Below, one piece after another: positions 16,929 through 42,049 of a DNA stretch of 64,000 nt; the stretch's first letter is position 1; every line of letters begins with the position of its first letter. Position numbers and translations under genes: made by a program. Location: the NCBI GenBank assembly GCA_000004695.1, contig CM000153.2:5344001-5408000 (forward strand), given 5' to 3'. The notes under the pieces are model-generated. The model was not told where the DNA came from. It worked only from the letters and a program-made list of their open reading frames with translations, and searched no databases. This stretch comes from Dictyostelium discoideum (Eukaryota).

Positions 16929-17012
<84 letters not shown>

Positions 17013-17255
17013 TTTAAGAAATTTCATGATTGTAGTTCAAATGGTTCATTAAATCTACATCAAATATCAATTGAAATGAAATGGAATTTAAAAACATTTT
17101 TATTAAATGGTATGAATATTAGCAACAACAATAATAATAATCTTGGTGAAATTAGTTCAAATGAAGTTTTAGAATCATTAAATAATTACAGAAAATCAAT
17201 TGGATTATCATCAAGTTTAATAAAATGGTCACCATCAAATATTTATGATAGTAAC

Positions 17256-17289
<34 letters not shown>

Positions 17290-17351
17290 TTGAAATTATT
17301 GAATTTTTAATTAATAATAAAGAAAATTATTCAAATATTAGTATTTTGTAA
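15561..17351 (+). CDS. Stand-alone ORF (596 aa) resembling the ketoreductase (psi-KR + KR) region of type I polyketide synthases. The NADPH-binding motif is degenerate, and there are several poly-Asn inserts.
   Basis: TVLITGQEGLSLQFLKWIINKR…IIVVSKSS aligns with the PKS KR pattern TYLITGGLGGLG…KWL…VLLSRSG. Downstream, IFHFS, SSNGSLNLHQISIEM (compare GAWNLHQLT) and SSSLIKWSP (compare SINWGPW) follow in the expected order. No KS/AT/DH-like coding sequence lies in the ~1.4 kb AT-rich upstream region. Confidence 0.45.
16705..16792 (+). repeat. (CAA)n / (AAC)n microsatellite, in-frame poly-Asn/Gln codons
   Basis: About 29 tandem aac/caa units. Confidence 0.9.
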
Positions 17352-17474
17352 ATAATAAAAATAAAATAAATTTTTGTAAATTAAAATATTCTTTTTATTT
17401 ATTTAATAAAATAATAATAATAAATTGATTATAAATTTTGTTTTTTTTTTTTTTAATTTTGTTTTTTTTTTTAT

Positions 17475-17509
17475 TTATTTTCTTTTACGAAGATTATTAT
17501 TATTATTTA

Positions 17510-17591
<82 letters not shown>

Positions 17592-18514
17592 TGATTTTGA
17601 AATAAGTAAAGACATTAAACTTGAAAAAGAATCACTCTTATTATTTAATAATTCAATTGCATAATTATAAGATTCATCTTTTGAAACACCAAATGCTTTT
17701 GAAACTTCTGTCGAACCTGTTTTTATAATGGTTGAATAAAGTGGAAAATCATTTTTTGGTGGGATTGTTCTTTTTTAAAAAAAATAAAAAAAAAAAAAAA
17801 AAATTATAATAATAATAATATTAATATTGTTTTTTTTTTTTTTTTTTTTTTTTCTCATGTATATTTTTAAAAATTTAATAATTACTTTATAATTGGTGGT
17901 TCTAATTTAAAATTTGAAAAATTTTTAATTAAAATTGATTCAGGTTTATTTAATATAAAAGATTCTAAAGATTGTTGGGGTTGTCTTAAGATTTGAGTAT
18001 GAATGAAATTACGAACAGTTTTAAAATCAGTTTCTAAATAAAGTGCACCAATGAATTTAATTAAACAACGATATGAATAATGACTAAAATAAATTGATTT
18101 ATAAAATGAATTTGAATTAATTTGAAAACGAATAAATTCTGATAAACCAATATCTTTACAACGTTCTCTTAAAAAGTAAGAACTTTTAATTGATTCTCTA
18201 AACTCTTCAAATATTGATTGATCATTAAATGAAAATTCTGAATCTGAAATTGAATGTCTATAACATAATTCTCCAAAAAATCTTAATTTATTTTGTTCTG
18301 CTTCATTTTGTAAACTTGGACAATGTGTTAAACTATCAATTATAATTTTTGGAATTTCAAAGTCATCATTGCCATTTTTTGAAAATTTAATATTTAAATC
18401 TTTTAATAATTTTAATAAACTTGGTTTAAATTCTGTTTCCATATCTTCATTAACTTTTTTACCATATAATTCAGAGGTGGTGGTGGTTGTTGTTGTTATT
18501 GTTTTATCAATTTG

Positions 18515-18547
<33 letters not shown>

Positions 18548-18787
18548 TCCATTCGTTATTGTTATAACTTTTGAATCATTTATATCAATACCTTCAACAT
18601 CTAAATATAATGGTTCTAAATCATCAAATTGTTCGGTTGTTTTTATTATATTTTGAGTTTTTAAACGAATAAATCTTTTATTATTATTATTAAAATTATT
18701 AAAATTATAAAATATATTTTTATTTTCAATAAATAAATTTTTCCTAATATTACAATTATTTGTAATTTTAATAATATTTTTAATCAT
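17475..18787 (-). CDS. RNase III domain + dsRBD protein, probably mitochondrial ribosomal protein mL44-like with a degenerate catalytic site. Exons 18787-17886 and 17769-17475.
   Basis: NKLRFFGELCYRHSISD resembles the ERLEFLGDA signature, and IKFIGALYLETDFKTVRNFI resembles the second RNase III helix. The N-terminus is K/R-rich and presequence-like. The listed ORF stops at 17882-17884, but a GTAATT donor starts at 17885. An acceptor AG at 17771-17770 gives a 116-nt intron. The frame then continues for 99 codons (STIIKTGSTEVSKAFGVSKDESYNYAIELL, dsRBD-like C-terminal helix) to a TAA at 17477-17475, and exon lengths close the frame exactly. Confidence 0.55.
17514..17590. repeat. (ATT)n microsatellite; coding poly-Asn on the minus strand
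   Basis: About 25 perfect att units. Confidence 0.9.
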
Positions 18788-19023
18788 TTTATTTTTTTTT
18801 TTTTTTTATTTTTTTTTTTTTTTTAATTAAATATAACTTTTTTTTAAAAAATCTGTAAAAAAAAAAAATATAAAAAAAAAAAAAAAGGCAAAAAAAAAAA
18901 AAAATATAAAAAATAAAAAAAAAAATTATGAAAAAACGTAAAAAAACGAATCTCTGTTTTTTTTATTTTTTTTTTTTTTTTTATTTTAAATTAACTATAG
19001 TTTTTTTTTTAAATTTATTTTAT

Positions 19024-19750
19024 TTATTTTAATTTTTTATTATTATTTTGATTTTGATTTTGGTTTTGATTTTTTTTTGAAAAAATTATTAATTTAATAA
19101 ATAAAAATATATTTATAAAGAAACCTAATGTTAATACAAAGATTCCAAAAAATATGAAAACATATTTAAGTAAACAAAAGTTTGAACCAAAATAAATAAA
19201 AGTATCAATTGATGATGATGGATAATTTTTTAAAATTTGATAATGACAATAATTTTCAAGTTCATCAAAAATTAAACCTAAAATTGGTATTAAATTATAA
19301 AGGTCACTAAATGATTTTTGATTTTCATAACCCAAGATTGGGTATGTTTTTGATAACATTGAAATTACAATAATTGCTAAAAGAATTGGAAATATAATAT
19401 CATAATAACTTGTATACATTGTCATATATAAATCTCTACCTTTTGGTCCTAATAATTCTAATGTTTGAATTGCTTGAGTCTTTGTATAACCTATTAAATA
19501 TGAATCTAATAACTTTTTTTTTTTTTTTTTTTTTTTTTTATTATTTAATATTTTTAATAATAATAATAAGAAAATATAAATAATTTTTTAAAAATAAAAA
19601 ACACTCAATACTTACATTAATACTTAATTGTGACATAATTTTTGTTGACATTAAATTGAAAATAAAAAATGCCAAAACTAATGTAGGAAATAATACATAT
19701 GGTGAACCTGTTAAATTTCTTAACTTGTTTGATAAACTTCTTAAAAACAT
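19024..19750 (-). CDS. Small four-pass membrane protein (~207 aa). Exons 19750-19616 and 19512-19024.
   Basis: Exon 1 (MFLRSLSNKLRNLTGSPYVLFPTLVLAFFIFNLMSTKIMSQLSIN) ends at a GTAAGT donor at 19615. The first AG after the poly-A tract (19514-19513) restores the frame (LLDSYLIGYTKTQAIQTLELLGPKGRDLYMTMYTSYYDIIFPILLAIIVISML…). There are four hydrophobic segments and a C-terminal (NQ)n tail. Confidence 0.5.
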
Positions 19751-20279
19751 TTTATTTTTACTTTTATTATTATTATATATAAATATATAAAACCATACAA
19801 TTAAAAAAAGAGTGAAAAAATAAAAAAACTAAAAAAAAATGAATTTGGTTTTTTTTTTTTTTTTTTTTTTTATAAAAATAAAAAAATTTTCCATTTTTTT
19901 TTTTTTTTAATTATTTTTTATCATTATTTGATTATTAAATAAATCAATAATAAATCAAATTAATAATAAAAACTTTATATTATGTCTCATTTAGAAATTA
20001 TAATTTCCTTTTTTTTTTATAAAATAATTAAAAACAAATATTAATTTTTTTTTTGGAAATATTATTAAACAACCAAAATATTCAATTTAGATAATAATAA
20101 AAAAAACATGATTAATTAAAAAATTAAAATTTTAGATTTTATAAAAATAAATTATTTTATTTAATATTTTTTTTAAAATATAAAAAAAAAACCCCACAAA
20201 GCTAATTAAATAATAAAAAAATACTAATGTTAGAAACTAATTTAGAAATATTATTTAATATTTAATTTATAAATATTTA

Positions 20280-21261
20280 AATGGTTATTATCAGACAAAA
20301 ATTTTGTACACGTAATGTTTCTATCCGCAAATAAAACTCAGTCCGCTCGTCAAGGGTTCACATCATTAAATAACCAAATAAATCAATACTAATTAAAAAT
20401 TATAAAAAAGAAATTAACATACCAATTAAAATGCAGTTATATAGCAAGACTTTAAAACAAAGAGCTAGTTATTTTTTTATTTGTACAGGTTCTAAATTTT
20501 AAATTAAAAAATAATATTAATAACTGATTTTTTTTTTAAAAAAAAAAAAAAATAGAAAATTATTAAAGGACCAATTGATAAATCAGACGTGTTAAAAAAG
20601 ATGTCCTCATTTTACAATCAGACATATGCTTGTATGAAAATCATCATATCTATCAATTGGTTCGAATAATTGTAATTTAATTCTTACCTTTATTTCATGA
20701 GGGGAAAAAAAAGTTTTTAAAAACTAATTTTTTTTTTTGGAGGCATCTGCATACCAAGAATTAAACTGAACTATTAAACAAGGCAATTTTCTAGAAATAA
20801 ATAATAAAAATAATATGTTAATAATTTAATCTTTTTTTTTTTATAAAAAAAAATGATTTATTTAAATAATTATTTTTTTTGAGATATTTTGTCAGATGTT
20901 ATAGAAGAAGTAATGTTTTTATTTCATCATTCTCTTTAAGATGTCCCTAACAGGTTTTCATCATATAAATAATCCCAAAAATAAATTATTCTTTAAAAAA
21001 AAAAAAATATATTTTAAAACTTACTCTTAACCTTAAGACATTTTATTGGTGCACCACAACAAATTGATTTGAATGAATTTTATTTTTTTTTTTTTTTCTT
21101 TTATAAAAAAAAGTGGAACGAAAAAAAAATTTGAAAAAAAAATTTGAAAAAAAAAAGTAAAAAAAAAGAAAAGTAAAAAAAAATAACGTTAAATTCGAAA
21201 AAAAAAAAAAACGTAGTTCTTAAAAATAAAATTAAGCCAAAATTTCCTCATTTTTTTTGTC

Positions 21262-21300
<39 letters not shown>

Positions 21301-22750
21301 TATTATTAACTTTTACAGAAATATTTCAATAAACACAAATAAAACTCAATCAAATGGTATATAGAAGTAATTTATTTAATTTTTTATTTTTTATTTTTTT
21401 TTTTCTCTTTTAAATTGTTCTATGTAACAAAAGCATCACTTTATCACTTTAAATATTTAAGTAAAATCCATTAAAAATTCTTTTCCTTTTTTTTCTTTTT
21501 AATTTTTTTTTTTTTTTTTTTTTTTTATTAATTATAAATTTTTTAAAATAATAATCTTTTTATAATGTTTTAAAAGTAGATTAAAATAATAATAGTTTCA
21601 AATGATTCAAGTAATTCGACCAATGTAAATAATAATTGAAATAATTCTTGAAATAATAGTAATAAAGGTCCAAATTTTTATTGATTATTTTATTAATTAT
21701 TGTGATTTTGAAATTGAATATCCAAAACCAATAGTTTATACTATTGGAGGGAATTTAACAGTCTAATAACTTTTATATTATATTTCAAATATTACAATAG
21801 AGGTTAATAATCAATTACAAAGTAATAATATTTAATTTATAAATTTAACAACAATAACATGTAATTTACCATCAATTAATGAAACAAGTCAATCATCAAT
21901 AATAAACATCTACTGCCAAAAAACACTATAACCACAATTTTTAGAAAAAAGTTATTATTAAAAATAGCATTTGAAAGTAAATCATGGAGTGGATATATTT
22001 TTCAATATTCTAAAGATGAAATTCTGTATAATAAAAGTTATAATTCAAGTGATAAATCTTTTAATTAATAGCACAAATAATAATAATAATAAACAAAACA
22101 AGGAAAATGGAATTAATATATAAGTACAAAAGCACAATTGTGTTAATTTGTACCTTTGTGCCTTCAAGTATAGCTATAATAGTATATTTGATAAAGATTT
22201 TCTTAATAAGAAAAAGAACAAATAAATTATTACATAAATCTTAAAAAAAGAAATTATTTATCACAAGAACAAAAAAGAAATAGGTCGTGCAAAAGTAAAA
22301 GAAGTTGACGAAAAAGATCCAAGAAACAAAATTTGAAAATAAACGTTTAATGCTTCAATATGCTACCAGGAATGCAAAATATAGAAGCACTGTAGCATGG
22401 ATGGAAAAAGAGTTTGAAAAACAAGAGTTTGAAAAATAAGAGTTTGAAAAACAACAAAATCAATCAAAAAATGATAATATTGAATGTTCAAGTAGTGGCC
22501 AAAGCCAACAACAAGATTTTGAAAATAAAAATGAAACAACGTCTCAATTACCACCATCACAACTACCACCACAGCTACCCTCATCACCACCACCATCACA
22601 ACTACCACTACCACAGCTACCCTCATCACCACCATCACCACAGCCACCATCATCATCACCACCACCTACCTTCATCACCACCATCACCACCATCACCACC
22701 ATCACCACCATCACCACCATCACCACCATCATCATTATCATCACCATAAA
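20280..22750. other. Non-AT-homopolymer, complex non-coding block without an intact ORF. It contains a degenerate repeat-coded ORF with an internal stop. Probably a transposon or rearrangement remnant.
   Basis: Base composition and complexity differ from the flanking intergenic DNA. At 22390-22445 a triplicated 15-mer (gagtttgaaaaacaa / gagtttgaaaaaTaa / gagtttgaaaaacaa) has one unit mutated to a stop. At 22540-22740 the sequence is Pro/Ser/Thr-rich ccaccatca-type repeats. No tRNA or rRNA signatures. Confidence 0.35.
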
Positions 22751-23029
22751 ATAATTCTGAAATTAAAAATAAAATAAAATAAAATAAAAAATAAATTAAA
22801 TAATCCCATTTATTATTTTAATATATATATTTGTTTTATTTTGATTGGTTTGAAATTCTACTTGTTGTATTGTACCATATGACGTTCTACAAATTTGAAT
22901 GTAAATCTATTTTGAAATTCAATTGATTTAAAAGTAACATCTGTATATTGATATAAATTAATTTTAACTTATAAAATTCTACCTGTACCTATGGTTCTAT
23001 TTTGAGCGCTACTGATCTATGGTATGTAA

Positions 23030-23345
23030 ATCCATTTGAAGAATTTCCTTGGCTCTGGTACACCGAGTGGAACGAATTCTAGATCCATTTGATCATAATG
23101 AGTATCAAGAGCTTGCATATATTTGGAGAAAGAAATTAACCAATTGATGGATGGGAAATGTTTACGTTGTGCTAATTTTTTATCTAAACCCCAGAATACT
23201 TGGACGATACCTAAAGTGGCAGCAGTGACTGGATCAGCAAAATCTATATTATAAAAATTAATAAAATTAGTAAAATATTCAAATTTTTTCAAAGTTGCCA
23301 TCTTAAAAATTTTGGCATACCTCCACCAGAGGTTTAACTGCACCG
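23030..23345 (-). pseudogene. Fragment copy of the V-ATPase A subunit gene (vatA), duplicated ~3.5 kb upstream of the intact gene
   Basis: Positions 23037-23263 are about 97% identical to 26731-26937 of vatA. The differences are a 'tacaccgagtgg' versus 'tacggagtgg' indel and a tctAgatcc/tctGgatcc substitution. The fragment encodes [54 protein letters not shown]. Further vatA-like sequence (ctgcaccgacaa…) follows after an ~80-nt AT-rich insertion. No start codon, and both ends are truncated. Confidence 0.7.
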
Positions 23346-24301
23346 ACAACTTTAACGTGAAACAAGTTATAAATTAATTAATTAATATTAAAAAATATTA
23401 ATTGTAAATGCAACTTGCATTTACAAATAAATAATTTTTTTTTTTTTCTTTTTTTTTTTTTTCCTTTTTATTCTTTTTGTAAGTTTAATTATAAAAAATA
23501 AAAAAATAGAAATACCTTAAAATTTTATTTTTATTTTATTTTATTTTTTTATTTTATTTTATTTATTAATTTTTTTTTAAAACTAAAATATGGAAAAAGA
23601 AAAAAAAAATAATTTCAATATAAAAATAAACCCTCAATTGAATTTTAAAAAAATAAACCCTCAATTAAATCTTAATAAAATGGTAAAGGGTTATTTTTTT
23701 TTTTAAGGTGTTTTTGACTATTCAAGAATTTTACCACATTATTCAAAAAAAGAAATTAAGTTATGACATAGTTATTTAAATTGATATATCATTCATTCAA
23801 ATGAGAAGAAAAGATGGTAATACCTAAAATCAAGGAAAAGAATCGAGATTGGATATCTAACAGGTAATAAACATATTCAAACATATCGATTACTTGCAAA
23901 AATTTTTTAAAAAAAAAAAAAAAAAAAGATGATGATTAAATAAATAATAATGGTTAATCATAATAAGACATTCCTATTTTTTTAATTTTTAATTTTTTAT
24001 TTTTTTTTTATTTATTTTTTTTTGTTTAAAGATTAAAATTTTTTAAATAAGGAAGTTACACTTTTTATACTAAAAATAATAAATCCAAAAATTAATCTAA
24101 AATTCTTTTTTTTATTTTTTTTTTTTTTTTCTAAAATTTTTTTCACCAAATTTCTTGGAAGTGTTTTCAAAAATCTGTATTTGGAATTTTTTTTTTTTTT
24201 TTTTATTTTTTTTTTTTTTTTTATTTTTTTTATTTTTTTTTTTAATTTAATATATTTTTTTTTATTATTTTTATTTTTTTTTTAGTTTTAATATGATTAT
24301 T

Positions 24302-24430
24302 TATAGAAATGATGGCCGTTTTAAATATTTACCAGGCCGCTGAAATTATGAATGCTACATTGGTTATATAATATCAAATAATTTGGAATAAAAAGTTAAT
24401 TAAAGAAACAATGCAATTACAATTTGAATA
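24302..24430 (+). repeat. Degenerate tandem duplicate of the 5' end of the ORF at 24602
   Basis: atgatggccgttttaaatatttaccaggccgctgaaattatgaatgctacattgg… parallels atgatggcagtttccaacatatactatgcagaaattatgaatgcatgcataggttc… at 24602, including a shared …taattaaagaaacaatgcaattacaa(t)ttgaatat block. The copy is closed by early stop codons. Confidence 0.6.
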
Positions 24431-24601
24431 TTGTGAAAAAGTGTCAAGAAGACTTTCAATTAAATGGTTTAGAAAATTTTTTTATAAATTACATTTGCAC
24501 CAAAGGTGATGATTCAATTATATCGGGCAAACTGTTCCAACTTTTGATCTTAGACTTAAAGGCATGAAAATCCTACAACTGGTTGTTTAAAGGTTAGAGC
24601 T

Positions 24602-25403
24602 ATGATGGCAGTTTCCAACATATACTATGCAGAAATTATGAATGCATGCATAGGTTCTTTGATGGCAAATAGTTTAGAATCAGATTTAATTAAAGAAACC
24701 AATGCAATTACAAATTTGAATATGTCATCAGGTCCAATTAATACTTTGGCTGTAAAATCGAATTTATTTAGAAAGTATCACAGCAAATCCTATAAAACTC
24801 AAACTGTTAAATATGGTGATCTCTTTTGGTCCAAAAATGATGATGAAACAATTAAAGGATTTGAGAAAGTTTTGGAAACTGAAAGTTTATTAATTGGTCC
24901 ACATTTAATTATGCATAGTGAATATTATAAATTTCGTGAAAAAAATAACGATCCAATTAAATTTGTTCAAAATCCAACTATTTAATATAAAAACACATGT
25001 AAGAATGATATTTTTTCAAGATAGAGCAGTAATACCACTTCAAAACAAAACAAATCCATCATACAAAAAAACTAATTCAAGGAATATCGGTGAAGATTTA
25101 CCAAAATCCTTTACATTTGAAATTGATAAAAATTTAAAAATAGGAGCAATGGCCTATATGTACAAACATCTTATAGATTCACTTGGAAATGATGTCGAAA
25201 TTATTAAAAAGTACCTCCAACCCTATTATAAAACAAAAATTGAAACCAAAGAGGAATTTAAATCTTATGTAGGCAAACTTATAATGATGGTAATACAAAA
25301 AGAACATGGAAACTGTATTATAGGAGAAGATACAGACTTAAAAATAAAGGGATTGGTTAATGAATATCTTTTGAAAAAAGGTATTTTACAAAAAAAAAAT
25401 TAA
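24602..25403 (+). CDS. Hypothetical protein encoded in two overlapping frames (24602-24985 and ~25020-25403); either a frameshifted or atypically spliced gene, or a pseudogene
   Basis: Both ORFs have normal-complexity, protein-like translations (…YGDLFWSKNDDETIKGFEKVLETESLLIGPHLIMHSEYYKFREK… and …IGAMAYMYKHLIDSLGNDVEIIKKYLQPYYKTKIETKEEFKSYVGKLIMMVIQKEHGNCIIGEDTDLKIKGLVNEYLLKKGILQ). The frame changes by +1 around 24985-25020, where only a ~22-nt GTAAGA…CAAG pseudo-intron exists. Confidence 0.3.
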
Positions 25404-26323
25404 AGTTGAAAAAGTGGTTGGTTAAGCAAAATCTTTAAAACTTTACAATCATTATTTATTCTAACTAATAATCTAAAATAAAAAAATAAAAAAAACACTT
25501 TTAAATAGTACATTCCTTCTTTTTTATTTAATATTTATTCAAAGATTAGTAATGACAGACGAATTAACCGAGTCGAAAATATTTAAATTGAATCTATTAA
25601 TTTTTTTTAATAACTATTATATTAATTTTTTTTTTTTTTTTTTCTAATTTATTATTTTTTTTTTTAATCAATATATATCTAAATTATTATTAAAATTATT
25701 TATATATTTATTTTTTTTTTTTTCTTTATTTATATTTACCTTATTTACTTTACTATTTATATACTCTTATATTTATATATTTTATTTATTTCTTTATTAT
25801 ATTAAAATAATTTTTTTTTTAGGACAGTCATTCGTAGTGATAAACACTAACAAGACGGGATATTCACTAATTTTTATTATGTTTATCAAACAAGAATATG
25901 AATTGAATTTTTTTTTTTTTAATTAAATAACCTACCAAAGAAAATGCTAACTAAAAAGTATGGATAAATTAAATATATATATTCTTTATTGATATTTCGA
26001 AGATATCAAACACTATATAAATTATATTTAAAAGCTAAAATGCAAAATCACGTTTACAAACAATTCGTTGTAAATTAAAAAGAGGTATCAATCAAGCTGC
26101 TCCTCTTAATAAATGAGTACACCACCATAATCTCCTCTATCATGCTAAATAATAAAAATAAAAATAATAATAAAAAATACAGCAAACACAACCTGAGAGG
26201 AATCTTTAAAAAAAAAAAAAAAAAATGATGCAAAGTATAATTATTGTTTTGGTTTAGATTACTTTTTTTATTTTTTTATTTACTATTATATATTTATATT
26301 ATTTTTTATTAATATCATTTATT

Positions 26324-28643
26324 TTAAACTAAATCACTAAAGTTTCTGAAAGCAGTAATGATATCTTCATTGAGAGTTGAGAAATGAGCAGTTAAAGTTT
26401 GTTCACCGTCAGTTGGATCTTGGAATTTCATTGAAGTAATTCTGTGAATGATTTCTTTTAATTCATTTTTAATTTGATTCCAAGTAACTTTATTATCAGC
26501 GGTACTTGATTCAACAGCTTTTTGTGCTAAATTGTAGAAAGTCATCATATTCTTTAACATCCAAACGGTCTTGAAGAATGGACAACATTTATCGTATGGA
26601 GAGAAACCATTTTGTTGAAGGAAATCATCACGAATAATACGAGCGACTTCAATGGTAATCTTTTCAGATTCACCTAAAGAATCTTGACCGACCAATTGGA
26701 CGATTTCAGAGAGATCTTCTTCCATTTGAAGAATTTCCTTGGCTCTGGTACGGAGTGGAACGAATTCTGGATCCATTTGATCATAATGAGTATCAAGAGC
26801 TTGCATATATTTGGAGAAAGAAATTAACCAATTGATGGATGGGAAATGTTTACGTTGTGCTAATTTTTTATCTAAACCCCAGAATACTTGGACGATACCT
26901 AAAGTGGCAGCAGTGACTGGATCAGCAAAATCTCCACCTGGGGGAGAGACTGCACCGACAATTGTAACTGAACCAATACGAGTTGGATGACCAATACATG
27001 ATACACGACCAGCTCTTTCATAGAAAGATGCAAGACGAGCACCCAAGTAAGCTGGATAACCAGAATCTGCTGGCATTTCAGCTAAACGACCAGAAATTTC
27101 ACGAAGAGCTTCAGCCCAACGAGAGGTAGAATCAGCCATCATAGCAACATTTAAACCCATATCACGGAAATATTCTGCCAATGTAATACCAGTGTAGATA
27201 GAAGCTTCACGAGCAGCTACTGGCATATTTGAAGTGTTGGCAACTAAACAAGTACGTTGCATAATTGGTTCTTCTTTATCACCGACTTTAGTATGGAGTT
27301 CTGGGAATTCCATAAGTACTTCAGCCATTTCATTACCACGTTCACCACAACCTACGTAAACAATTGCATCAGAGTTGGAGAATTTAGAGAGAGATTGAGA
27401 AATTACAGTCTTACCACAACCAAAAGCACCTGGAATAGCACATGTACCACCTTGTACGCATGGGAAAAGTGAATCAAGTACACGTTGACCAGTTAATAAT
27501 GGATAATTACATGGAAGTTTTTCAATGACTGGACGTGCACTACGTACTGGCCAATTGTGAACCATAGTTAATTGTTTACGTTTACCATCGAATTCAATGG
27601 TTAAAAGTGCATGATCCAAAGTGTATTCACCAGCTGGTGCAATCTCTACGATGGTACCCATTTCCTTTGGTGGAACCATAATCTTATGGATGATTAAATT
27701 ATTTTCAACAACTTGACCAAAAATATCACCACCACTAACATTGTCACCAACTTTTAATTTGGTATCTGGTTGATATGGCCATTTAATAGTTCTATTTAAT
27801 GATGGAGTATTAATACCTCTTGGAATATAAATACCTTTTGTAATCTCTGCAATTGCATTTAATGGACGTTGAATACCATCAAAAATATTATTCATAATAC
27901 CTGGACCTAATTCAACTGTTAATGGTTTATGAGTTCTTAATACTGGATCACCAACAGTTAAACCAGCTTATTAAATAAAAAATTAAAAAATATATATATT
28001 AATATTATTTTATTATTAATATAAATATATATATTATATATTTTATTTTTTTTAATTGTACTTACAAGTTTCTTCGTAAACTTGAATTGTGGCAGTATCT
28101 TCTTCTAATCTAATAATTTCACCAACTAATTGATTGTGACCTACACGAACCAACTCGTACATAGCAGCACCAGCTAATTGATTAGCAATTACGACTGGAC
28201 CTGATACTGATAATACAAAACCTTGTGAATTATCAGCTTCAGTTGAAGCGAATGATGGTAAACCTGAATTTTTTGACTAAATATTATTATTTTTTGGAAA
28301 AAAAAATTATGATTAATATTAAATTATTATTATTATTATTATTAATCTAAACAAACAAAATAAATAATTATTTGGTGTGTGTGTATATATATATTATTGT
28401 GAGTGAATGAATGATCGTAAATTGTGTGAAGTATGTTTTTATTTTTAATTTATGATTTAGCATGCAATGAAAATATAATCAATCATTTGGTTTAAAAAAA
28501 AATTTTAATCATTTGATCTTTATAAATATATTGATATATCATCATTTAATAAAAAAAATTATATTATTTTATTGTTATTTTTAATTTTTCCTTTAAAAGG
28601 AAATTAAATAAAAATATATTTTTTTTTGGTTGGTTCTTACCAT
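26324..28643 (-). CDS. vatA: V-type proton ATPase catalytic subunit A. Predicted exons 28643-28641 (ATG only), 28276-28066 and 27966-26324; 618 codons.
   Basis: The 523-aa ORF has a Walker A motif (GAFGCGKT) and shares its whole length with V-ATPase A ([15 protein letters not shown]…). The upstream exon encodes [70 protein letters not shown], with a GTAAGT donor at 28065 and an …AAG acceptor at 27968-27967 (phase 1, giving …[12 protein letters not shown]). Exon 2 opens directly after TTTAG at 28278-28277 with an in-frame TAG before it. The nearest ATG immediately followed by GTAAGA is at 28643-28641, and the total then equals 1857 nt. That first exon is an inference. Confidence 0.85.
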
Positions 28644-29500
28644 TTTGTATGTTTTATGTTACAAAAAGTTTTATTAAAAATAAAAAAAAAAAAAATAAAA
28701 AAAAAAATAAAATAAAAAAAACTTTGTGAATAAAAAAAAAATTAGATTTTCTGTAAAAAAAAAAAAAAAAAAATTACAAAGAAAAAAAAAAAAAATTTAA
28801 AAAAAAAAAAAAAAATTCTAAACCCTGGTTGGGGAAATAACGAATGAAAAAAAAAAAAAAAAAAAATGGTTTGAGCCTGTAATTGTTGACAAGTTTTATG
28901 ATCGATTTGGAAACTAAACAATTAAACATTTAATTATCTAATTTCCTCTTTTTTTTTTTTTCTTTTTTTTTTTTTTTGGTGAAATTTTGTTTAGAAAAAT
29001 AAAAATATCCTTTTTGTGTGGGCAATAGATTATTTTGAATTGTTTATTTATATTTTTATTTTTTTTATTTTCATTTTTATTTTTATTTTTTTTTTTTTTT
29101 TTGTGGAAATGAAAAAAAAGGTAATAAAAATAAAAATTTTGTGTGTATATATGATATTAAGTTTTAGTTTTTTTAACATACCATTATTTTTTATAGTTTT
29201 TTTTTTTTTTCTTTAAAAAAAATATATATAAATAATAAATAAATAATAATTAAATAATGGGAAAAAAAAAAAAAAACTTTGTTTCTTTTATAACAATGAA
29301 TTTAAAACAATTTTAATTTATGCTTTTTTTTTTTTTTTTTTTAATTTAAAAAAAAAATTTTAAAAAAAAATTTGGAAAATTTTTCCAGCCCGGTTTAATT
29401 TTCCCCCGGGGTTTTTTTTTTTAAATTTAAAATTTTTAAAATTTTTTTTTTTTTTTGAGCGTTTATTTTAAACAGAAAAAATGGTGATTTGACTCTGTTT

Positions 29501-40362: not shown

Positions 40363-40612
40363 AAAAAATTATAATGGTGGACGTTAGATAGAGTCAGACA
40401 GTCATAACAAAGGTGCTACCCTTTGTATGACACTTATAAACATGTTTGGATGTTCTTAAAGTTTTTTGATCATCATTAAGTTGTAATTTTATGTATTGAA
40501 TGATTCCGTAGAAAACATTCTATAGATAAGAATTACCTACTAATTGTCGAATTGGATACATTCACACTTTTTTTCAAAATACTGATCCCCTATAGAGTTT
40601 ATATTTGTGGGA
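40363..40612 (-). ncRNA. Candidate small ncRNA gene (copy 1): DUSE-like promoter element tCCCACAAat at 40612-40605 (minus), box C-like AUGAUGA and box D-like CUGA motifs, T6 run at the 3' end
   Basis: There is no ORF. The element is duplicated almost identically at 41806-42049. The CCCACAA heptamer matches the Dictyostelium upstream sequence element found ~60 nt upstream of ncRNA genes. The minus-strand transcript would end in TTTTTT (plus-strand A-run at 40363-40368). Confidence 0.35.
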
Positions 40613-41805: not shown

Positions 41806-42049
41806 AAAAATTATAATGGTGGACTTTAGATAGTCAGACAGTCATAACAAAGGTGCTACCCTTTGTATGACACTTATAAACATGTTTGGATGTTCTTAAA
41901 GTTTTTGGTCATCATTAAGTTGTAATTTTATGTATTGAATGATTCCGTAGAAAACATTCTATAGATAAGAATTACCTACTAATTGTCGAATTGTATAATT
42001 ATACACTTTTTTTCAAAATACTAATTCCCTATAGTTTATATTTGTGGGA
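41806..42049 (-). ncRNA. Candidate small ncRNA gene (copy 2) with a conserved CCCACAA element (42049-42042 minus), AUGAUGA and CUGA motifs
   Basis: About 95% identical to 40363-40612 in the same orientation, 1437 bp away. The promoter-like motif, the C/D-like boxes and the terminal T-run are all conserved, while the flanking sequences diverge. Confidence 0.35.

Follow-up and report, generated by a model that had tools for sequence, protein, structure and literature searches.

Introduction

Cases of recent intron gain are rare, and how such gains come about is debated. For intron loss, a model reportedly formulated by Fink in 1987 involves reverse transcriptase and predicts a bias toward the 3' end of the gene. 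Non-processed pseudogenes under gene conversion are DNA-level copies that contain introns, carry disabling mutations and show a mosaic divergence from their parent gene. Chimeric genes arising from a deletion between adjacent genes have an in-frame junction between a truncated upstream open reading frame (ORF) and the last exon of the downstream gene. Finally, the small nucleolar RNAs (snoRNAs) of box C/D type in Dictyostelium discoideum are said to be arranged in clusters, as reportedly described by Aspegren and colleagues in 2004. Here, we analyze a locus to which these systems are the closest comparisons. It lies between positions 20280 and 25403 of a 64,000-nucleotide (nt) stretch of chromosome 4 of D. 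discoideum AX4 (assembly GCA_000004695.1, contig CM000153.2, positions 5,344,001 to 5,408,000 of the forward strand; the whole stretch is hereafter called the window), on the 3' side of the essential housekeeping gene vatA.

An earlier note on this DNA had described the whole interval as the debris of a transposon insertion or of a segmental rearrangement. All six features on which it relied are present, at or close to the positions that it gave. However, the interval very probably contains two unrelated things, a functional snoRNA cluster in its left fifth and a young patch of duplicated, fused and decaying gene pieces. The idea of rearranged debris therefore holds for about 21.3-26.2 kilobases (kb), a lineage-specific region with duplicated and truncated gene pieces, and fails for 20280-21000, where a conserved, published and expressed snoRNA cluster is found. 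The most interesting content of the patch is a dead copy of vatA. Our comparisons indicate that it records how two introns were recently gained and then lost, and that sequence exchange with its living parent continues.

Sequences Compared

The window was compared with a second D. discoideum assembly, GCA_054883475.1 (loci L005 and L007), which is colinear with it at 99.4% identity over 18.6 kb and differs between 20000 and 26300 by one substitution and two indels in homopolymer runs. Logan contigs assembled independently from the sequencing runs of other isolates (L001-L004) show 99.1-99.3% identity to the window. Orthologous loci were obtained via exact-protein look-ups from Dictyostelium cf. 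discoideum (L006), D. firmibasis (L008) and D. dimigraforme (L009). A further locus (L010) comes from an assembly, ACTFIW, labelled D. discoideum. In coding DNA, identity to the window decreases from ACTFIW (98.2-99.0%) to cf. discoideum (96.8-97.6%), D. firmibasis and D. dimigraforme (90-94%) and D. purpureum (83-85%).

As the earlier note had observed, composition departs from the usual intergenic pattern, with a guanine-cytosine content of 0.19-0.40 at 20150-23300 and 24350-25400 vs. 0.05-0.15 in the adjoining intergenic DNA.

A Conserved snoRNA Cluster Next to vatA

The sequence at 20289-20967 (minus strand) is an already known, functional tri-cistronic snoRNA cluster. It contains three C box ... 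D box units at a spacing of about 300 nt, namely CD28 (20289-20369), CD18 (20580-20650) and CD26 (20890-20967), published on the minus strand of chromosome 4 at 5364289-5364369, 5364580-5364650 and 5364890-5364967, respectively. The published coordinates equal the window position plus 5344000, and this one constant offset fits five snoRNAs. All three published probes match the window exactly, ACAAAAATTTTGTACACGTAATG at 20297-20319 (CD28), ACGTGTTAAAAAAGATGTCC at 20585-20604 (CD18) and ATGTTATAGAAGAAGTAATGTTTT at 20897-20920 (CD26). CD28-CD18-CD26 is described as an expressed cluster, and the ribosomal RNA (rRNA) targets are given in Tables 1 and S5 of the same study (Diesend et al., 2022; PMC8817022). 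According to Table 1, CD28 directs methylation of 17S rRNA at Cm1715 and is the counterpart of yeast snR70 and human U43, CD18 corresponds to U27/snR74 with 17S rRNA Am28 as its target, and CD26 corresponds to U74/snR64 with 26S rRNA Cm2603 as its target (PMC8817022). The cluster thus guides 2'-O-methylation at 17S-C1715, 17S-A28 and 26S-C2603.

The boxes that define box C/D RNAs are found, with a C box (RUGAUGA) near the 5' end, a D box (CUGA) near the 3' end and internal C'/D' elements. In CD28, the C, D' and D boxes and a 7-bp terminal stem (GGTTATT/AATAACC) can be read directly from the sequence. The CD18 region (20572-20659) gives full-length matches to the Rfam families SNORD121A (36.2 bits, E = 4.8e-4) and SNORD27 (35.3 bits, E = 2.4e-3), with scores below gathering thresholds. 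All four boxes (C, D', C' and D) fall within the alignment, as does a terminal stem of 8 bp, and the guide of CD18, ACAAGCAUAUG, is of U27 type and identical to the SNORD27 consensus. Matches of the CD26 region (20890-20975) are weak (Afu_335, 26 bits; SNORD74, 22.9 bits). The DUSE promoter motif [AT]CCCA[CT]AA has no match in 19500-21700; the string ACCCCACAA at 20191 was considered as a DUSE and rejected, as it does not fit this pattern.

Compared with cf. discoideum, CD28 is 94-100% identical, CD18 100% and CD26 98%, vs. 45-88% for the spacers. These conservation peaks of 94-100% reach the level of the adjoining coding exons. The snoRNA region as a whole aligns at 67-68% in D. firmibasis and D. 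dimigraforme, and the boxes and guide elements are invariant in the four species. In sequence, coordinates, spacing, intergenic position and strand, the cluster agrees with the published D. discoideum C/D clusters, without any difference. What is new here is that its guide elements are invariant and that it is syntenic with vatA also in cf. discoideum, D. firmibasis and D. dimigraforme; the cluster is an old neighbour of vatA. The description of 20280-21000 as complex non-coding debris is contradicted by the exact probe matches, the Rfam C/D matches and the conservation in four species. For annotation, this odd non-coding DNA is a functional snoRNA cluster and not junk.

Elsewhere in the window, two near-identical box C/D snoRNAs lie about 1.4 kb apart on the minus strand, OR4 (40392-40479) and OR3 (41832-41918). 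Their C and D boxes sit at the coordinates predicted from the chromosome 4 offset. They are "orphan" snoRNAs of Diesend et al. (2022), without known rRNA target (PMC8817022).

A Lineage-Specific Block Between the snoRNA Cluster and vatA

The region between the snoRNA cluster and the 3' end of vatA (21314-26210) is specific to the discoideum complex. In blastn comparisons, D. firmibasis and D. dimigraforme align to the window over the snoRNA region (from 20210/20271 to 21231/21314) and again from 26210/26247 onward, at the vatA 3' end. The two conserved parts are separated in these species by only about 520 and 345 bp, respectively, and the approximately 4.9 kb of window 21314-26210 have no counterpart there. 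In cf. discoideum, 16976-21283 is colinear at 84.8% and homology resumes at 25189. Window 21644-25189 has no colinear counterpart in this species, and about 1 kb with an exon resembling the P-loop exon of guanylate-binding proteins (GBP) stands in its place. In ACTFIW, the entire block is present and expanded. The alignment with sibling species that the earlier note had proposed thus gives a graded picture, with a block absent from D. firmibasis and D. dimigraforme, much shorter (about 1 kb) in cf. discoideum and larger in ACTFIW.

These observations suggest that the space between the snoRNA cluster and the vatA 3' end became, in the stem of the D. discoideum species complex, the site of a fast-turnover patch, which was then remodelled by segmental duplication at the DNA level, deletion and gene conversion.

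DDB_G0287139 and a Dictyostelid Orphan Family

The block contains at least three partial copies of an orphan dictyostelid gene of about 510 amino acids (aa). An intact ORF of this family (507 aa) is found in ACTFIW over the sequence of the AX4 ORF at 24602, and a 513-aa D. discoideum paralogue on another chromosome (P0125) is 34% identical to it over 415 aa (E = 2e-67). An exhaustive HMMER search with the 270-aa protein modelled at the AX4 locus (P0001) returned as credible relatives, apart from the self-match, three dictyostelid proteins, P0125, P0124 and P0002, the last of these by its SRI-like exon only. Matches to a Flavobacterium Ig-like protein, a scallop KH-domain protein and a Mucor protein were rejected as multi-stretch or compositional.

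One copy is DDB_G0287139 (UniProt Q54KT0; 24413-25405, plus strand), a truncated and frame-shifted family member fused to an exon resembling the Set2 Rpb1 interacting (SRI) domain. With the 507-aa ORF as tblastn query, three parts of the family are recovered, each in a different frame: residues 31-61 (24430-24522), 78-221 (24563-24982) and 224-297 (24978-25196). Of the family protein, about 85 residues at the N-terminus survive solely as relics with a shifted frame, and about 200 at the C-terminus are absent. An ORF at 24602-24985 (127 aa) is followed by an ORF in the +1 frame that runs to 25403. The change of frame to which the earlier note had drawn attention is real. The same two-frame arrangement occurs in independent assemblies of other isolates and is therefore not an assembly error, and alignment to the intact relative locates an 11-nt deletion at about 24983. 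Just upstream, 24301-24431 (plus strand) is a degenerate duplicate, interrupted by stop codons, of 24594-24723 (the MMAVSN...LIKET segment). The identity is 77.6% over 134 nt (E = 1e-19), and Logan contigs L001-L004 carry the same duplicate, so that the duplicated 5' end reported earlier stands. A third, stray piece at 23743-23900 (plus strand) comes from the C-terminal half of the family (...GYLTGNKHI...). It was found by tblastn and tblastx and corresponds to residues 343-374 and 378-394, at 62-71% identity in two frames.

The family alignment of DDB_G0287139 stops at ...HLIDSLG, after which the SRI-like exon begins (25182-25403, plus strand; fusion junction at about 25189-25192). Its C-terminal 65 or so residues exceed the gathering threshold of Pfam SRI (PF08236; 23.5 bits) in two lineages, with scores of 28.8 and 28.4 bits for AX4, 25.4 bits for ACTFIW and 15.8 bits for the truncated cf. 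discoideum protein P0002. The exon is shared with P0002 (80% aa identity) and with a 322-aa ORF of ACTFIW (90% aa identity), and it is the last exon of different genes in these two loci. In AX4 it is attached downstream of the family copy, in cf. discoideum downstream of the GBP-like P-loop exon and in ACTFIW downstream of an acidic, Asn-rich ORF. The cf. discoideum gene (L006 10001-10736) scores 30.3 bits with Pfam GBP, and no remnant of its GBP-like exon was found in the AX4 window. An SRI score above the threshold is what the exon has in common with Set2-type proteins. No SET, AWS or post-SET domain was found in P0001, in P0135 (the protein of DDB_G0287139) or in the six-frame scan. A Set2/SETD2 orthologue was rejected, as SET, AWS and WW context are lacking, and Set2-type proteins also differ from the present exon in its three upstream partners in three lineages. 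There is also a resemblance to chimeric genes born of a deletion between neighbours, with the same in-frame junction of a truncated upstream ORF and the last exon of the downstream gene. A deletion would have fused a copy of the family gene, truncated at both its 5' and 3' ends, in frame to the SRI-like last exon of a neighbouring gene, and the 11-nt deletion would then have shifted the frame.

DDB_G0287139 might instead be an ordinary functional multi-exon gene, with the frame change explained by an intron and the upstream duplicate being a real first-exon region. We regard this as rather unlikely. Two independent annotations give proteins of nearly equal length, P0001 (270 aa, new assembly) and P0135 (271 aa, named for the SRI domain), the latter belonging to the 90% cluster of the former. 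With a GT...AG interval of about 89 nt taken as an intron, the frame is restored, the SRI score lies above the Pfam cut-off, and the codon-usage score of 24602-24985 is gene-like (+0.39). Isolates carry two changes in 783 nt of the ORFs vs. 10 in 1121 nt of flanking DNA, a suggestive difference in numbers too small to decide on constraint, and a polymorphic +TGT at the junction is in frame. As the ORFs are intact in wild isolates, with few changes and an in-frame junction polymorphism, the gene could be functional and spliced, which counts against our interpretation. However, the two annotation pipelines bridge the frame change with different introns and end their models differently. The interval that the models splice out is homologous to coding sequence that runs on without a break in both P0124 and the intact ACTFIW ORF; the 11-nt deletion accounts for the shift. 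The N-terminal relics and the missing C-terminal part also speak against a functional gene, and a literature search for DDB_G0287139 returned no paper. The earlier note had named intact colinear orthologues in relatives as evidence against debris. This is borne out in part: ACTFIW has the intact family ORF of 507 aa, but the copy in AX4 is chimeric, truncated and shifted in frame.

On sequence grounds, a pseudogene is the likeliest reading of DDB_G0287139; at best, it would be a young chimeric gene that a fortuitous intron has rescued. It should be flagged in annotation as chimeric and probably decaying, and its name, "Set2 Rpb1 interacting domain," is misleading.

The vatA Gene, Its Dead Copy and Two Probably Transient Introns

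Intact vatA occupies 26326-28645 on the minus strand (long ORF at 26324-27895) and its product is 100% identical to AX4 VatA. A fragment of the gene, 3.3 kb away and in the same orientation, begins at 23031. Window 23031-23245 is 98.1% identical to 26721-26933 over 215 nt (E = 9e-103), with two mismatches and a 2-nt indel. This confirms the vatA fragment of the earlier note. Residues 417-476 are recovered at 98% by tblastn, and the six-frame scan matches Pfam ATP-synt_ab at 30.6 bits. The exon part (23031-23243, minus strand; VatA residues 417 to about 487) contains a 2-nt insertion. The fragment extends past 23245, first by 76 AT-rich nt, then by 31 decayed nt that resemble vatA codons for 10 residues, and then by further AT-rich sequence. 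Window 23031-23478 aligns by blastn to vatA of ACTFIW (12353-11902) at 89.3%, and 23031-23457 to vatA of cf. discoideum at 87.2%. In these two genes, the aligned AT-rich parts are two introns surrounding a 31-nt micro-exon. The fragment thus contains, on the minus strand, relics of intron B (23244-23319), of the micro-exon (23320-23350; 10 residues) and of the 3' part of intron A (23351-23478). The donor of intron B is destroyed by a 6-nt deletion and the micro-exon carries an in-frame TAA. The micro-exon relic shows 10 mismatches in 27 aligned nt to the AX4 gene and 93% identity to the ACTFIW fragment.

Because it contains intron sequence, the fragment is a DNA-level duplicate and not a retro-copy. 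A processed pseudogene is ruled out, since intron B and part of intron A are present in a piece lying 3.3 kb from its parent in the same orientation. No footprint of a simple tandem duplication was found, as the DNA to the left of the fragment has no similarity to the DNA to the left of vatA. The AX4 and ACTFIW fragments share both the TAA in the micro-exon and the 6-nt deletion of the intron-B donor. The two fragments are hence orthologous, which dates the duplication to before AX4 and ACTFIW diverged.

Exon maps drawn with tblastn place introns after residues 406 and 416 in only two of the eight loci, those of cf. discoideum and ACTFIW. In protein-to-genome maps, neither the 406/407 nor the 416/417 intron occurs in vatA of AX4, D. 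firmibasis, D. dimigraforme, D. purpureum, Polysphondylium violaceum or Tieghemostelium lacteum. At the intron site (about 26931-26963), the window has 29 nt vs. 335 nt in cf. discoideum and 452 nt in ACTFIW. AX4 vatA is colinear with the spliced sequence, both introns being exactly gone. Its 5' introns, one following codon 1 and one at 71/72, are still there; 3' introns are lacking.

This distribution indicates one gain in the ancestor of the discoideum complex followed by a precise double loss in the AX4 lineage, a history much more parsimonious than at least four double losses. vatA would have gained two introns around the 31-nt micro-exon in that ancestor, and an internal piece would have been copied at the DNA level while the gene carried both. 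The AX4 lineage would later have removed both introns precisely from the live gene, the dead copy keeping them. Because only 5' introns remain in AX4 vatA, we infer that removal involved recombination with reverse-transcribed messenger RNA. The exact excision, the joint loss of adjacent introns and the 3' bias correspond to the pattern of reverse-transcriptase-mediated loss. As in the model attributed to Fink, two adjacent introns appear to have been removed precisely and jointly from the 3' part of the gene while 5' introns were kept. In contrast to that model, the introns lost here are apparent recent gains rather than ancient ones, and the mechanism at vatA is one that we only infer.

In ACTFIW, the divergence between fragment and gene is mosaic. 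The exon shows no difference in 265 nt and intron A none in 58, vs. nine in 30 for the micro-exon and seven in 74 plus 15 gap columns for intron B. This is the pattern produced by gene-conversion tracts, which indicates that the live gene and the dead copy may have continued to exchange sequence. As a DNA-level copy that retains intron sequence, is disabled (by a stop codon, by the insertion of 2 nt and by the destruction of a splice donor) and diverges from its parent in a mosaic, it resembles non-processed pseudogenes under gene conversion. It differs from them in that the dead vatA copy preserves introns since lost by its parent, and so records an earlier exon-intron structure in the same genome.

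We consider it distinctly unlikely that the block is ancestral and was deleted in the D. firmibasis/D. dimigraforme lineage, with the micro-exon introns of vatA likewise ancient and repeatedly lost. Several points nevertheless favor this history. Intron loss is in general commoner than gain, and the polarity of the block depends on just two close outgroups, which may be sisters. A single deletion in their ancestor would explain the parts of the block other than vatA equally well, and D. purpureum is not syntenic downstream of vatA. Moreover, D. firmibasis has an extra vatA intron at 537/538. The ACTFIW fragment stops at exactly this point, a hint of an ancestor richer in introns. Against this, both vatA introns are lacking in five outgroups at four depths. 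A history of losses alone requires at least four independent precise double losses vs. one gain and one loss, and the genes of the block other than vatA have no detectable homologues outside the discoideum complex.

Very unlikely, in our view, is a birth of the introns in the dead copy, as AT-rich insertions that were moved to the live gene by the gene conversion still at work between the two sequences and survived there as spliceable sequence; AX4 would in that case have kept or regained an intron-free allele. If true, this would be intron birth via a pseudogene intermediate, with donor and recipient states adjacent in sibling genomes of a model organism.

With a gain in the ancestor of the complex and a loss in AX4, vatA would offer a dated three-state series in an essential housekeeping gene, from no introns (outgroups) to two introns and a micro-exon (cf. 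discoideum and ACTFIW) and then to precise loss (AX4), accompanied by a fossil copy in the genome and by evidence of gene conversion. Being small and tractable, the case could be traced through wild D. discoideum isolates, of which many have been sequenced.

Two further observations concern the 3' part of vatA. The D. firmibasis intron after residue 537 is private to that species (L008 12073-12183). In ACTFIW (L010 20035-20397), the vatA fragment is longer than in AX4 and ends exactly at residue 537. Behind it comes another partial copy, of residues 505-530 or so, with more divergence. Together they may reflect either a richer ancestral intron set or several rounds of duplication.

The Transposon Hypothesis

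The earlier note had named a transposon insertion as one of two possible origins, and present evidence argues that the block is not transposon debris. A six-frame Pfam scan of 21300 to about 25430 found no reverse transcriptase, integrase, tyrosine recombinase or transposase, the vatA ATP-synt_ab piece being the only match. The family ORFs show no transposable-element domain in Pfam or NCBIfam. At the block edges, eight short AT-rich matches were counted as possible terminal repeats, vs. 1-14 in 20 shuffled controls, and self-BLAST added none. ARAGORN found no transfer RNA gene, the target of TRE-type elements, in the 64-kb window. These negatives come from Pfam, edge repeats and transfer RNA genes; Dictyostelium repeat libraries were not searched.

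It is thus highly improbable that the block is the debris of an inserted element (DIRS-1, Skipper, TRE5/TRE3, DDT, Tdd or one not yet known) with carried or captured host fragments: it is indeed lineage-specific between conserved neighbours, it holds an orphan ORF family that is multi-copy and has a paralogue on a different chromosome, and the N-terminus of this family resembles a GIY-YIG nuclease motif by eye, although profile searches do not confirm it, but the domain scan, the edge repeats and the transfer RNA search all speak against such an origin, and the vatA piece, being a DNA-level copy of the adjacent gene, points to local duplication.

A GIY-YIG nuclease assignment for the family was not confirmed, the motif-like strings seen by eye being negative in Pfam, NCBIfam and PDB profile searches. 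A single-sequence AlphaFold2 model of the family has a pLDDT of 32.5, too low for use.

An Orphan Stretch With Unstable Tandem Repeats

An orphan, decaying, coding-like stretch lies at 21580-22545 (plus strand), after the snoRNA cluster and before the vatA fragment. Its multi-frame translation includes a convincing transmembrane-helix-like segment (ORF 22107-22244) and a coiled-coil-like EFEKQ repeat. The repeat is encoded by three tandem 15-nt units at 22410-22454 (plus strand), in the order GAGTTTGAAAAACAA / GAGTTTGAAAAATAA / GAGTTTGAAAAACAA (TRF: 22408-22454, period 15, 3.1 copies, 93% matches). The TAA of the middle unit (22437-22439) terminates the ORF 22305-22439. This stop, pointed out in the earlier note, is genuine, as GCA_054883475.1 has it too. 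The number of units varies by lineage, ACTFIW having two and no stop. ACTFIW also lacks 22137-22375, transmembrane helix included, and differs in frame downstream.

The stretch is followed by a low-complexity repeat of the CCACCATCA type (22550-22747, plus strand; TRF periods 9, 27, and 42). Depending on the frame, it encodes Pro/Ser, His or Thr/Ile; several frames are open on both strands and there is no ATG of its own, in agreement with the repeat ORF without a start reported before. ACTFIW reads the repeat in a His-rich frame, so that the protein is not conserved. One new assembly has a 112-aa gene model at the Pro/Ser repeat; this model is probably spurious.

In four segments of the orphan stretch, codon-usage scores range from -0.22 to +0.01, compared with +0.44 to +0.86 for real genes and -0.54 to -0.93 for intergenic DNA. 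They lie between genes and intergenic DNA, like those of the proven dead family fragments. The score peaks on the plus strand in three of the four segments; for the transmembrane-like segment (22107-22245), it peaks on the minus strand. The frame-corrected translation of 21.6-22.6 kb has no homologue among 5.8 billion proteins, and the stretch has no Pfam match. We interpret 21.6-22.75 kb as unconstrained DNA, possibly once coding, with unstable tandem repeats; the support for a coding origin of 21.6-22.5 kb is compositional, and no homologue was found. A relic of an IPT/TIG-type receptor was considered for the transmembrane-like stretch and is unsupported, the TIG gene next to vatA in D. dimigraforme having no tblastx similarity to it.

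Another tandem repeat, of a 27-nt unit AAAAATAAACCCTCAATTAAATCTTAA (23622-23681, plus strand; 2.2 copies, 90% identity), lies in the AT-rich DNA that separates the stray family fragment from the vatA fragment.

Neighbouring Genes

Polycistronic snoRNA precursors are processed by RNase III enzymes. Two positions from the snoRNA cluster, the gene at 17882-18787 (minus strand) has a weak RNase III-like match (PF14622, 26.5 bits for a cut-off of 35). This proximity may be a coincidence. Closer to the cluster, a small two-exon gene at 19044-19765 (minus strand) encodes a membrane protein of 207 aa in the new annotation. It is 96-100% identical to cf. discoideum at the nucleotide level, vs. 60-88% for its intron and flanks, a degree of conservation that is unusually high in an uncharacterised protein. 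In D. dimigraforme, a TIG-domain gene (L009 15291-16976) occupies the position of the small membrane-protein and RNase III-like genes of AX4. Finally, beyond pheS, cf. discoideum carries a gene with a faint, transposase-like DDE_Tnp_4 match (L006 17983-19636) that AX4 lacks.

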